Shown here one piece after another: positions 2,134 to 3,576 of a stretch of DNA of 3,576 nt. Under the pieces are notes generated by a model. It made no database searches, was not told where the DNA came from, and worked only from the letters and a program-made list of their open reading frames with translations. This DNA comes from Escherichia phage ECO95 1-6-1: the sequence record OR845313.1; one strand, 5' to 3'. Each line of letters opens with the position of its first letter. The first letter of the stretch is position 1. A program made the translations under genes and the position numbers.

Positions 2134-2320
2134 GGACAATTTCCTCTTCATTAGTTTCTACTTCTTGCGTAACCACTGGCGCCAGGTGACGGCGGGCAAT
2201 CATGGTGATTACCCACTCGTTATCTTCCGGCAGCGAGATTTCGCTATTGGGCCACAGTAAGACTTCCTGACCGTCGGCGAGCGTGACGCCGCTTGCCGGG
2301 CCACTGTAGATATATTTCAT
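2123..2320 (-). CDS. Small conserved phage protein upstream of sheath (Mu gp38 / DUF2635-like), 65 aa
   Basis: Seen: ATG at 2320..2318 overlaps the stop of the upstream gene as ATGA; strong Shine-Dalgarno (GAGGAAATTCA-ATG); its 3' end overlaps the sheath start by 8 nt. Knowledge / inference: position and size match the small gp38-like gene between gp37 and the sheath gene in Mu-like tail modules; the segment SLPEDNEWV...IARRHL loosely matches my recollection of that family. Family assignment is weak. Confidence 0.5.
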   Translation of the reverse strand: MKYIYSGPASGVTLADGQEVLLWPNSEISLPEDNEWVITMIARRHLAPVVTQEVETNEEEIVHGS

Positions 2321-2772
2321 TGAATTTCCTCATAATTAACGATTGTCAGCAGGGGGGAGTCCTTGCTTTCCTGTTCCGCGATAAACAGGGGGCTGGCGGT
2401 CATATCCAGGGCGTAACGGCAGAAGTTTGCGGCGTCGCCGATATATTTTTCGCTTTCCAGCCAGAGCGGACGATCGCAGTCGGGAAGTTCAATGCCCCCC
2501 AACGAGCGACGTAGACGATCCAGCGCGTTTATCGCGTCACTTATTTGCGGAACAATAACGGTGGCGGAAATCCGGATTAGTTGTTTTTGTACCGTGGCAT
2601 CCGTATTTTCTGGTTCGGCAAAAACCGAACCGCAGTAGTGAATTAATACCGTTACCTGCTGTCCTGTTGGGATATATACTTTCGCATCGGTTGATGAAAT
2701 ATGTATATCCATATCAGGGTTTAATTCACGTAGTCTATTCGCCACGGTATGTACAACAGATAATGTTTCCAT
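2317..2772 (-). CDS. Phage virion/tail-associated protein, Mu gp37-like (DUF1834-like), 151 aa
   Basis: Seen: 151-aa ORF with ATG at 2772..2770 and an AAGGAAAG Shine-Dalgarno; first gene after a terminator and AT-rich spacer; translationally coupled (ATGA) to the next gene. Knowledge / inference: a ~150-190 aa gp37-like gene followed by a small gp38-like gene directly upstream of the sheath gene is the Mu-like arrangement. Assignment is by synteny and size, not sequence search. Confidence 0.6.
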   Translation of the reverse strand: METLSVVHTVANRLRELNPDMDIHISSTDAKVYIPTGQQVTVLIHYCGSVFAEPENTDATVQKQLIRISATVIVPQISDAINALDRLRRSLGGIELPDCDRPLWLESEKYIGDAANFCRYALDMTASPLFIAEQESKDSPLLTIVNYEEIQ

Positions 2773-2795
2773 ATACGCTTTCCTTGATTTACCGG

Positions 2796-2813
2796 GAGAG
2801 ATAATATTCTCTC
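2796..2813 (-). promoter_or_regulatory. Perfect dyad GAGAGA-N6-TCTCTC in the AT-rich spacer upstream of the tail operon; candidate regulator binding site overlapping a possible -10 element (TATTAT on the minus strand, 2806..2801)
   Basis: Seen: + strand 2796-2813 gagaga-taatat-tctctc, with perfectly complementary 6-bp arms. It sits 24-41 nt upstream of the gp37-like ATG in a 126-bp AT-rich non-coding spacer (2773..2898) that follows a terminator. The only -10-like hexamer (TATTAT) lies inside the dyad and I find no good -35 at 16-18 bp spacing, which would fit an activator-dependent or operator-controlled late promoter. Promoter position and function are inference. Confidence 0.3.
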
Positions 2814-2898
2814 TTCGTTATCGTTCAGACGTATTTTGATGTATCAGGCATCAGGAATCTTTTAATCTCCTTTAGAGAAAAAAGTTAAAACAAATAAC

Positions 2899-2928
2899 AA
2901 ATCCCCGGCGTATAAACGGCGGGGATTT
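2899..2928 (-). terminator. Rho-independent terminator immediately after the lysis-gene pair
   Basis: Seen: 9-bp stem AAATCCCCG (2899-2907) / CGGGGATTT (2920-2928), with 2 further inner base pairs possible, starting 2 nt after the TAA stop of the 104-aa ORF. On the minus-strand transcript it is followed by a U-rich tract (GUUAUUUGUUUUAACUUUUUU). Confidence 0.5.
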
Positions 2929-2930
2929 GT

Positions 2931-3245
2931 TTAATGGTTCCCTCGTTGAATCAGTTCTATTTTGCTATATAGCGCATCCAGTTTTGCTTCCAGAACGGCC
3001 TGGCCGCGCAGATAGTCGTCTCTGCGGACATAATGCAGCGGCAGATCGGCGCGGAACTCCAGAAATTCTCTCTCCAGCCTGGACCAACCTATTTCTGATT
3101 CGCGTCGGGCAGCTTCCAGTGCTTCAAAACGTTCATTCAGCCGTTTTTCAATTTGCGCCAGCAGCAATTTACCGGCAGCAAACATTAATCCAACAAACGA
3201 AAGTAAGAGGGAGATGACTTCCCAAAAATCGATACTGAGTTTCAT
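2931..3245 (-). CDS. Membrane-tethered small protein with N-terminal TM helix and charged helical C-terminal domain; candidate releasin (Mu gp25 / DUF2730-like), 104 aa
   Basis: Seen: ATG at 3245..3243 with a GAGGGAG Shine-Dalgarno, 12 nt after the endolysin stop. Residues ~10-27 (VISLLLSFVGLMFAAG) form a hydrophobic helix; Lys/Arg follow it, so an N-out/C-in topology is favoured. The rest is E/R/L-rich and probably coiled-coil. I translated the other two minus-strand frames by hand and found no embedded lipoprotein (Rz1-like) ORF, so this is not a classic Rz/Rz1 pair. Knowledge: Mu gp25 (DUF2730) is described as a membrane-tethered cytoplasmic releasin needed for SAR-endolysin release. The match here is by architecture and context, not verified alignment; a holin or i-spanin remains possible. 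Confidence 0.55.
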   Translation of the reverse strand: MKLSIDFWEVISLLLSFVGLMFAAGKLLLAQIEKRLNERFEALEAARRESEIGWSRLEREFLEFRADLPLHYVRRDDYLRGQAVLEAKLDALYSKIELIQRGNH

Positions 3246-3257
3246 TACTCCCTCTGA

Positions 3258-3576
3258 TTAATGAATGCAGCTAGCCTGCCCCCATTGCAAATAACGGGGA
3301 GCATGTTGGTATAAAATCGCTTTGGGATAGTGACGATTCTCGCGCCAGTTTGCGGCGCTGCGCCCGGCGTTAACGCGTTCTACATGTTCAAACCAGATGG
3401 ACGCATCCAACCCCTTTGCGGCGGCCAGCTTTTTATCTCTGTTAACCCAGCCTTGCCCGCCGTTATAGGCGCTCAGAGTGAAAGCCATTCGCTGGCAGCT
3501 ATTTTTTGCTGACACGCTTTTCCACAACTGGCGGTCATACTGTACCAGCGCGCGTATCGCCCAGGCGGGATTAAAC
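3258..3576 (-). CDS. Phage endolysin, lytic transglycosylase (SLT / lysozyme-like) domain, C-terminal part; 5' end beyond window
   Basis: Seen: the reading frame is open from the window edge (hand translation ...FNPAWAIRALVQYDRQ precedes the listed ORF; the track's initial 'M' is a TTG codon, so the true start is upstream of the window); stop TAA at 3260..3258. It contains ...MAFTLSAYNGGQGWVNRD..., matching the AYNxG signature of SLT-type lytic transglycosylases (established motif). The catalytic N-terminal region and any signal-anchor segment are outside the window. Confidence 0.75.
   Translation of the reverse strand, partial: FNPAWAIRALVQYDRQLWKSVSAKNSCQRMAFTLSAYNGGQGWVNRDKKLAAAKGLDASIWFEHVERVNAGRSAANWRENRHYPKAILYQHAPRYLQWGQASCIH

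Follow-up and report, generated by a model that had tools for sequence, protein, structure and literature searches.

A headless derivative of a BcepMu-like phage at the Salmonella lysC locus, most likely an R-type tailocin locus

The 3,576-nt stretch of DNA in sequence record OR845313.1 (the window, meaning the whole stretch analyzed) is Salmonella enterica chromosome. It shares 95.2% identity with S. Infantis SARB27 and 99.9% with one complete Salmonella genome. Its genes correspond to STM4212-STM4217 in LT2 nomenclature, and all of its coding capacity is on the minus strand. The content and surroundings of the window point to the junction between the lysis and tail modules of a domesticated, headless derivative of a BcepMu-like phage, located between lysC and yjbD, and this derivative most likely encodes an R-type tailocin. 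Gene calls in the window rest on the open reading frame (ORF) listing and on Pfam and PHROGs profile searches. These confirm, to within a few bases, the series given by the first-pass annotation: an endolysin gene, a small gene, a terminator, a spacer, and genes for gp37, gp38, sheath, tube and chaperone, all on one strand. The headless tail-like (tailocin) locus proposed there is supported by a full tail and lysis module, by bounds formed by core genes, by the same site in four genera and by purifying selection.

The island that contains the window was compared in S. Infantis SARB27 (L001), E. coli IAI39 (L002), E. coli A37 (L085), ten further Salmonella genomes (L089-L098), elements from two Superficieibacter species and Phytobacter (L005-L007), and a Lelliottia element (L008). 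In a 43.6-kb Salmonella neighborhood the island is flanked by lysC on one side and by yjbD/rluF on the other. It starts with a divergent Mor/C-family activator gene (mor), a Holin_2-3 family holin (PF13272, phrog_1528), an SLT endolysin and a 104-aa protein homologous to BcepMu gp25. The tail genes follow in the order gp37, gp38, sheath, tube, chaperone, tape measure, gpU, X, D and V, and the distal part consists of a gtrABC insert, W, J, I, the fiber, a DUF4376 fiber-assembly protein and one small gene. The contractile tail module is complete, including baseplate, spike, fiber and fiber-assembly genes (window with L001, L002 and L089), and the holin, the secreted SLT endolysin and the gp25-like protein supply lysis genes for release.

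Capsid, packaging, replication and integration genes are absent from the locus. The first-pass annotation had seen no head genes between the two modules, and this holds in the window and for 20 kb on each side in the 95%-identical Salmonella contig and in E. coli. Annotation of these flanks shows tape measure, baseplate and fiber genes, and in neither Salmonella nor E. coli do the island and its 20-kb flanks contain a terminase, portal, protease, capsid, integrase or transposase gene, an outcome that favors a headless element. Searches by tblastn with BcepMu gp27-gp36 gave no match in L001, L002 or L005-L008, and searches with the transposase genes gp08 and gp09 gave none in L001, L002 or L005-L007. 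The transposase A/B and head/packaging genes of a complete Bcepmuvirus are thus lacking from L001, L002 and L005-L007. The island of E. coli IAI39 occupies this site too, has ~80% nucleotide identity to that of Salmonella and lacks gtr. Relative to the empty K-12 lysC-yjbD site, the island replaces ~150 bp of spacer and mor ends ~54 bp from lysC; neither a Mu-type phage end nor a target duplication was recognizable in this comparison. The gtrABC O-antigen glucosylation operon (STM4204-4206; L001 29562-32397) sits between the baseplate genes V and W in Salmonella and is absent at this place in E. coli. Its products could protect the producer against a particle that targets lipopolysaccharide, or the insert could interrupt transcription of the distal tail genes.

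By sequence comparison, the parent of the island is a BcepMu-like transposable myophage and not Mu proper. Its sheath shares 70.6% identity with BcepMu gp39, and identity rises to 72-74% with the sheaths of two enterobacterial Bcepmuviruses, Escherichia phage PhiKM and Klebsiella phage KP12. The BcepMu map starts with C/Mor (gp01), early and transposition genes, holin gp21, SLT gp22, Rz/Rz1 gp23/24, gp25 and gp26. It continues with TerS, TerL, portal, F, G, protease/scaffold gp32/33, capsid gp34, gp35 and gp36, and ends with gp37, gp38, sheath gp39, tube gp40 and P2-like tail genes; the PhiKM order is the same. The island corresponds to such a phage minus three blocks, which are the early/transposition region, Rz/Rz1, and gp26-gp36 (8.4 kb in BcepMu). 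In complete relatives the Rz/Rz1 spanins sit between SLT and gp25, and gp26-gp36 sit between gp25 and gp37. The ancestral order assumed by the first-pass annotation (lysis genes, roughly 10 kb of head genes, then gp37, gp38 and sheath) is correct for BcepMu-like phages. Its description of the tail operon as Mu-like was right about gene order, which is analogous in Mu, but not about family. The gp37 family profile matched Mu gp37 with an hhalign probability of ~0.5%, and neither the gp37 nor the gp25 family of the island has detectable similarity to its Mu namesake.

By its motif content, the spacer ahead of the tail operon is a relic of the phage head-operon (gene I/gp32) late promoter. It extends for 123 nt from the end of the terminator hairpin to the gp37 ATG at 2772; the spacer of the earlier annotation is therefore present, but its length was put at 126 bp. 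A conserved block, TTTTTTCTCTAAAGGAGATTAAAAG, is kept upstream of gp37 in Salmonella, E. coli and Phytobacter. In a survey of 84 related loci, the motif (consensus TTTTCTAAAGCAGATTAAAAG) was found in the G-I gap of 18 complete enterobacterial prophages, where it precedes gp32 (equivalent to Mu gene I) by 60-67 bp, and upstream of gp37 in 16 headless elements. Direct alignment of the motif regions revealed an invariant core and a position-conserved -10-like element ~20 nt downstream. A position weight matrix (PWM) scan returned one strong motif site per island, and a related motif block lies 65 bp upstream of the holin. The two best PWM matches in BcepMu itself are weak and fall just upstream of the holin and of gp32. 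There is no sigma-70 consensus promoter on the coding strand of the spacer, as expected of an activator-dependent promoter, and by analogy with the late promoters of Mu the island promoters would depend on the Mor/C homologue. Deletion of the head genes placed the head-operon late promoter directly in front of gp37 and left it to drive the tail operon.

Comparison of the locus across relatives placed the island at the same chromosomal site in four genera. Linkage to pgi-lysC and an identical layout were found in Salmonella (11 genomes), E. coli, two species of Superficieibacter and Phytobacter massiliensis. The island is present in 198 of 5426 complete E. coli genomes, always on the chromosome, and a public collection indexes the exact gp38 protein in 12,386 blocks. 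In the comparison of Salmonella with E. coli, each of the 20 island ORFs was intact. Synonymous divergence (dS) between these species was 0.6-2.0 in the island, partly saturated, and thereby similar to the 0.75-1.3 of most flanking core genes, with yjbG as an outlier at 2.3. The ratio of nonsynonymous to synonymous divergence (ω) was 0.035-0.13 for most genes, 0.29 for gp37 and 0.24 for the chaperone; it was not computable for three island genes because dS was saturated. Within Salmonella (window versus SARB27), ω = 0.08 over 1074 codons. The fixed chromosomal position and purifying selection seen in tailocins are both found here.

The fiber is the most divergent gene of the island, with 65% amino acid identity between Salmonella and E. 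coli, and a fragment of STM4200 is specific enough to serve as a polymerase chain reaction marker for Typhimurium (PMC6201931). The intact ORFs, low ω, conserved layout and variable fiber are to be expected of a domesticated element with a variable targeting determinant and not of a decaying remnant. The within-Salmonella dS values form a mosaic, being at most 0.03 for SLT, gp37 and gp38, 0.18 for the gp25-like gene and 0.27-0.33 for sheath and tube. Two Superficieibacter sheaths differ in their identity to the Salmonella sheath, at 91% and 82%. The mosaic and the unequal sheath identities suggest allele exchange at the locus, including exchange between genera.

A near-consensus LexA box, CTGTAT..ATACAG, lies in the divergent mor-holin region, ~230-290 bp from the mor start. 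The box reads tACTGTATATATATACAGTt in SARB27 and CTGTATGTATATACAG or near variants elsewhere, and it occurs in 11/11 Salmonella copies, E. coli A37, both Superficieibacter species and Phytobacter, which together represent four genera. It is absent from the phages BcepMu and PhiKM and from the other headless lineages (Pectobacterium, Brenneria and Chromobacterium elements). A conserved TTTACA/TAAAAT element overlaps the box. RNA sequencing of the SOS response in S. Typhimurium 14028 recorded a 4.1-fold increase of STM14_5073 with nalidixic acid (PMC8072944, supplement). STM14_5073 was identified as mor by its size (348 bp), its strand and its position 21.7 kb from yjbD, and its rise favors LexA control of mor. 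In E. coli IAI39 the box is split by ISEc53, an ISL3-family insertion sequence with a ClbS/DfsB-like gene (L002 16984-19412), that leaves TACTGTATGTACATGG on one side and CATGTACATACAGTA on the other. Judged from this interruption, the IAI39 island has probably lost its SOS operator.

The full-length SLT endolysin is a 201-aa protein (L001, L089; PF01464, E = 3.5e-15; phrog_669, endolysin) and a homologue of BcepMu gp22. Its N-terminus resembles a signal or signal-arrest-release (SAR) sequence, reading MRYQYVCLVCAMTFLPADA followed by AEPP. The 104-aa gp25-like gene adjoins the SLT gene downstream and closes the lysis operon, and its product is kept across the phage family with a mean column identity of 58% in the family alignment. 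Its topology, judged by eye, consists of a hydrophobic segment at residues 7-29 followed by a K/R-rich stretch. The first-pass annotation called this gene releasin-like, a name that fits the position and apparent topology of the product but not its sequence family. No match to DUF2730 (PF10805) was obtained at a Pfam E ≤ 10, and the gp25-like family profile matched Mu releasin gp25 with an hhalign probability of 0.5%. The 104-aa protein is better described as a positional and apparent topological analogue of the Mu releasin than as a sequence member of the releasin family.

The proposed mechanism starts with DNA damage, which would lift LexA from the SOS box in the mor-holin region and raise mor expression. 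Mor would then turn on the two late promoters, which share the A/T-rich motif and have no -35 element, and headless tail particles would assemble. The holin, the secreted transglycosylase and the gp25-like protein would lyse the producer and release the particles without spanins. The variable fiber would direct the particles to related bacteria, and contraction of the sheath would kill them.

Several observations weigh against a working bacteriocin at this locus. No direct evidence of particles or killing was found for it in the searched literature, from which subscription journals were mostly missing. The promoter overlapped by the LexA box is ambiguous in direction, with TTTACA-N16-TACAGT pointing toward the holin and a TAAAAT -10 pointing toward mor. 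In the nalidixic acid experiment, STM14_5042-5072 (lysis and tail genes) are missing from the list of changes of at least 2-fold, mor induction is confounded by growth phase (ribosomal genes are up 8-fold), and the locus does not appear in the table of LexA-box genes (PMC8072944). The increase of mor without the late genes on that list indicates that mor induction alone did not detectably turn on the late genes in bulk culture under those conditions. Spanin genes were not found in the Salmonella-type loci, unlike BcepMu and carotovoricin, and in Salmonella gtrABC splits V from W with no extra late-promoter motif before W. The tail role of gp37 and gp38 is drawn from retention and synteny and not from structure. 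Only 3.6% of complete E. coli genomes carry the island. Sporadic damage is also seen, with the gp37 gene uncalled in L092 (~5400-6000) and the gp25-like protein truncated to 85 aa in L093 (5075-5332).

These points leave room for a less likely explanation, a headless tail-plus-lysis locus that is maintained by selection for a function other than the killing of competitors. Candidate functions are altruistic lysis or release of cell contents under regulation, a role as an anti-phage decoy or in receptor blocking, interaction with an animal host, and regulation of host genes by the Mor activator and the gp25-like protein. Purifying selection shows that there is some function and not which one, and with nalidixic acid the tail genes were not up at least 2-fold though mor was. 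Motility phenotypes point in the same direction. In a deletion screen of S. Typhimurium 14028, swimming and swarming were both impaired by ΔSTM4216 and ΔSTM4219, swarming was reduced by ΔSTM4197 and ΔSTM4204, and the ΔSTM4212 mutant was listed as hypermotile (PMC4219756). Indole induced STM4213 ~6-fold (PMC3405474), and the gtr O-antigen operon is embedded in the cluster. However, all of the contractile-tail structural genes and the fibers are kept at low ω, which is hard to explain unless the whole particle is used, and the fiber is hypervariable, as a targeting determinant would be. The toxin cargo and AAA+ ATPase genes typical of extracellular contractile injection systems and Photorhabdus virulence cassettes are not annotated in the Salmonella and E. 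coli loci, and carotovoricin, the closest characterized homologue, is a bacteriocin.

An inert, decaying prophage remnant that lost its head genes by chance and is losing the rest is improbable. Twenty ORFs are intact across two species near synonymous saturation, with ω of 0.035-0.13 for most and 0.08 within Salmonella. Conservation across four genera extends to the promoters, the terminator and the LexA box, and the identical layout recurs in each of the ten further Salmonella genomes, with exact gp38 in the 12,386 blocks already mentioned. Decay would fit the literature label of "phage remnant", the missing spanins, the gtr and insertion sequence insertions, the truncated or uncalled genes in a few genomes and the absence of the island from most E. 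coli. The deletion remnant offered as an alternative by the first-pass annotation is, as an inert leftover, strongly disfavored by the intact ORFs, the low ω and the conserved control sites. Its other alternative, a complete prophage whose modules are unusually ordered and whose head and packaging genes lie at another place in the island, has next to no chance of being right and is refuted for the loci examined by annotation of 20 kb on each side and by tblastn, because the island is bounded directly by lysC and yjbD/rluF, the genes within 20 kb are tail, lysis or host genes, and BcepMu gp27-gp36 and the transposase genes found no counterpart in L001, L002 or L005-L007. A headless R-type tailocin locus remains the most likely interpretation of the window and its surroundings.

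Features of the window and position of the LexA box in the compared loci. Positions are those of the window unless a locus is named.
Feature	Position	Strand	Basis or description
SLT-domain lytic transglycosylase endolysin, C-terminal 105 aa (STM4217 equivalent)	3258-3576	minus	ORF; runs off the window end
104-aa putative membrane-tethered protein, BcepMu gp25 homologue (STM4216)	2931-3245	minus	phrog_462, E = 8e-34
Intrinsic terminator of the lysis operon	2885-2931	minus	hairpin starting within the stop codon, then U tract, UUAUUUGUUUU
Late-promoter activator-site motif TTTTTTCTCTAAAGGAGATTAAAAG	2859-2883	minus	conserved block, 25 nt, A/T-rich
Candidate -10 element CAAAAT	2833-2838	minus	~20 nt downstream of the motif; position-conserved A.A(A/C)T in alignment; predicted
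Hairpin with GAGAGA-ATATTA-TCTCTC core, predicted gp37 5' leader	2794-2815	minus	inverted repeat
gp37 family protein (STM4215), first tail-operon gene	2317-2772	minus	PF09646, E = 1e-43
gp38-like protein, 65 aa (STM4214)	2123-2320	minus	phrog_895, E = 6e-36; overlaps the sheath start
Contractile tail sheath, 475 aa (STM4213)	706-2133	minus	PF04984 and PF17482; phrog_23, E = 3e-145
Tail tube, 174 aa (STM4212)	182-706	minus	PF04985, E = 4e-56
Tail assembly chaperone (gpE-like), N-terminal 43 codons	1-130	minus	PF10109, E = 1.4e-9; continues past position 1
LexA box	L001 19076-19091; L085 5099-5114; L005 7623; L006 7574; L007 7607; L089-L098 ~3819		

The terminator hairpin has a folding energy of -22.7 kcal/mol (z = -5.84), and 0 of 200 shuffled sequences folded as well. 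A hairpin followed by a T-run occurs at the same place in E. coli, Phytobacter and Superficieibacter. In Phytobacter the place of the gp37-leader hairpin is taken by a hairpin with another sequence, and in E. coli a deletion has removed the segment. The gp38-like gene overlaps gp37 by ATGA and is translationally coupled to it. The sheath likely starts at MAANYLHG rather than at the start of a longer 481-aa ORF. The full chaperone gene encodes 105 aa and is accompanied by an overlapping 42-aa GpE'-type ORF (L089-L098).

The gp37 protein is essentially identical to PDB entry 2gjv (6 chains). A search of solved structures with the gp37 family profile returned only 2gjv, which is STM4215 itself under the name "putative cytoplasmic protein" and gives no functional clue, and a single-sequence AlphaFold2 model was unusable, with a mean pLDDT (predicted local distance difference test) of 41.6. 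Both gp37 and gp38 are retained in every headless lineage, and gp36 and the genes upstream of it are gone except for a 3' remnant of gp36 in one Brenneria element (L011). From this pattern gp37 is inferred to be a tail-completion or terminator-type component. The "portal" label for gp37 (phrog_209; RefSeq BcepMu gp37 and Mu gp37) is not credible. Database annotation errors are propagating in this family, with the tail tube labeled "head closure" (phrog_55; RefSeq BcepMu gp40) and gp37 labeled "portal protein".

The right end of the island differs between Salmonella and E. coli. In E. coli IAI39, genes for a nucleotidyltransferase-domain protein and a slipin-family protein separate the last tail gene from yjbD (L002 34230-36154), and Salmonella has acetyltransferase and phosphotransferase system-like genes at this end. 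The difference marks this end as a site of variable cargo. Two records filed as "Salmonella phage S.Kent 1-2-1", OR851066.1 and OR851449.1 (L086), match the window at 99.8-100%. They were rejected as phage, being short UNVERIFIED_ORG chromosomal fragments that represent host DNA in a phage preparation; the coverage of OR851066.1 is 3.75x. The longer of these records extends beyond window position 1, away from the control region.

Headless elements with the same ancestry occur in other genera. The Pectobacterium and Samsonia loci have the order holin-SLT-Rz-gp25-gp26-promoter motif-gp37-gp38-sheath with a TolC-family gene upstream, and this layout and the TolC-family gene match the Pectobacterium locus to the published carotovoricin cluster (PMC13195805). 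A neighbor-joining tree of sheath and tube, built without bootstrap and only indicative, placed the lysC-linked elements and the Lelliottia element in one clade and carotovoricin, Samsonia and Lonsdalea in a separate clade. In the same tree the Brenneria headless elements nest among Brenneria prophages, and Chromobacterium elements form a fourth group. The lysC-linked element is best classed beside carotovoricin, as its sister lineage, and not within it. In Chromobacterium (L056-L058, L063-L066, L078 and L083) a C/Mor gene abuts gp37-gp38-sheath with a ~245-bp gap and no lysis genes upstream, an arrangement that may be an independent BcepMu-derived tailocin lineage in a betaproteobacterium.

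Elements from Lelliottia (L008), Brenneria (L009 and L011) and Lonsdalea (L031, L035 and L038) are headless and lack gp27-gp36. Upstream of the holin, transposase genes persist in L008, L009, L011, L031 and L038, the contig of L035 being too short to judge, and L008, L009 and L011 also have a C/Mor gene. These elements look like intermediate stages of domestication. The Brenneria endpoints are distinct, with an exact ATG(gp32)-to-ATG(gp37) fusion in L009 and the 3' end of gp36 kept in L011. Because deletion endpoints differ between groups, and even between the two Brenneria elements, head loss that keeps the late promoter before gp37 arose more than once. A search for microhomology behind the recurrent gp32-gp36 deletion found nothing beyond the ATG. 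Two candidates were set aside as relatives: kosakonicin, tried as an Enterobacteriaceae relative, is P2-derived, and the "tailocin" of E. coli ST131 is a full P2-like prophage at another locus.

A wider interpretation that joins these observations is tentative. The island would be an ancient functional R-type tailocin of the Enterobacteriaceae, maybe older than the Escherichia-Salmonella split, in which control by a phage repressor gave way to direct control of a Mor-type activator by the host LexA, with spanin-free release and gtr self-protection in Salmonella. Deletions that fuse the head promoter to gp37, arising independently and with different endpoints, would then be a recurrent route from BcepMu-like phage to tailocin in Enterobacteriaceae, Pectobacteriaceae, Brenneria and possibly Chromobacterium. 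A 2014 study by Bobay et al. reportedly described defective prophages with vertical inheritance that may be older than the separation of E. coli and Salmonella.

No paper that describes the Salmonella/E. coli locus as a tailocin, or tests it as one, was found in the searched literature, in which subscription journals are mostly uncovered. The locus figures there as a "phage remnant" with gtr and as single hits in the expression and motility screens. A survey of type VI secretion systems in 10,000 Salmonella genomes includes the locus implicitly among "tailocin/phage loci" that were set aside (PMC12994826), and Salmonella tailocin work engineers particles from intact phages (PMC10670071). If functional, the locus would give a large part of the sequenced Salmonella enterica, and a minority of E. 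coli, a native contractile bacteriocin. It would bear on strain competition in the gut and on serovar-specific killing through the variable fiber, and a native scaffold for engineered anti-Salmonella tailocins may already exist. It would also provide a simple circuit of SOS, LexA, Mor and late promoter in a model organism. The promoter-fusion deletions offer a testable mechanism for how late expression of the tail operon persists after head loss during prophage domestication.

Comparison with known systems begins with the parent phages. The late activator, holin, SLT endolysin, gp25, gp37, gp38, sheath, tube, tape measure and U/X/D/V/W/J/I/fiber genes of BcepMu, PhiKM and KP12 are homologous to those of the island and collinear with them, and the late-promoter motif is the same. 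The phages have transposase A/B and early genes, Rz/Rz1, gp26, terminase, portal, F, G, protease/scaffold, capsid, gp35 and gp36, whereas the island has none of these; in BcepMu and PhiKM there is no LexA box at the corresponding place. The lysis system of Mu consists of the SAR endolysin gp22 and the releasin gp25 (DUF2730) (PMC9239132). The island resembles it in that a gene for a secreted/SAR endolysin has, no more than a few genes downstream, a gene whose small product shows an apparent transmembrane segment near the N-terminus and a charged C-terminal domain (PMC9239132). The two systems differ in that the island endolysin is a transglycosylase and Mu gp22 is a muramidase, and in that the island has a Holin_2-3 holin and Mu has no holin.

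Carotovoricin (Ctv, carotovoricin Er) of Pectobacterium is, by homology and gene order, the closest characterized relative. The first-pass annotation had chosen the right kind of precedent, and the nearest is carotovoricin, not the P. syringae tailocin. The two loci share BcepMu-like descent, a sheath ~74-75% identical, a collinear order from holin/SLT to fiber, deletion of gp27-gp36 and the same late-promoter motif ahead of gp37. A fixed chromosomal locus conserved across the genus and variable fibers are also common to both (PMC13195805). The sites differ, being tolC_2-ybiB for carotovoricin (PMC13195805) and lysC-yjbD for the island. Carotovoricin keeps Rz/Rz1 and gp26, which the Salmonella-type loci lost, and there is no adjacent Mor gene or LexA box in the 7 kb upstream of the Ctv loci. 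A fiber invertase is not annotated in the Salmonella/E. coli island, in contrast to carotovoricin. Of the two, carotovoricin is the one with electron microscopy and killing evidence.

The R-type pyocins of P. aeruginosa and other P2-derived tailocins (kosakonicin, xenorhabdicin and dickeyocin) consist of a headless contractile tail and a lysis cassette at a fixed site, with variable fibers. R-type pyocins are under DNA-damage-linked control through a dedicated activator, PrtR/PrtN, and spanin-like genes are present. The P2-derived tailocins have the same functional design as the island, but their parent is P2 instead of BcepMu and their baseplate genes come first, where the island has the sheath first. 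Control in the R-type pyocins is by PrtR/PrtN, whereas the island has a LexA box and a Mor/C homologue. Taken by gene content and control sites, the lysC locus is best filed as a previously uncharacterized addition to the R-type tailocin kind.

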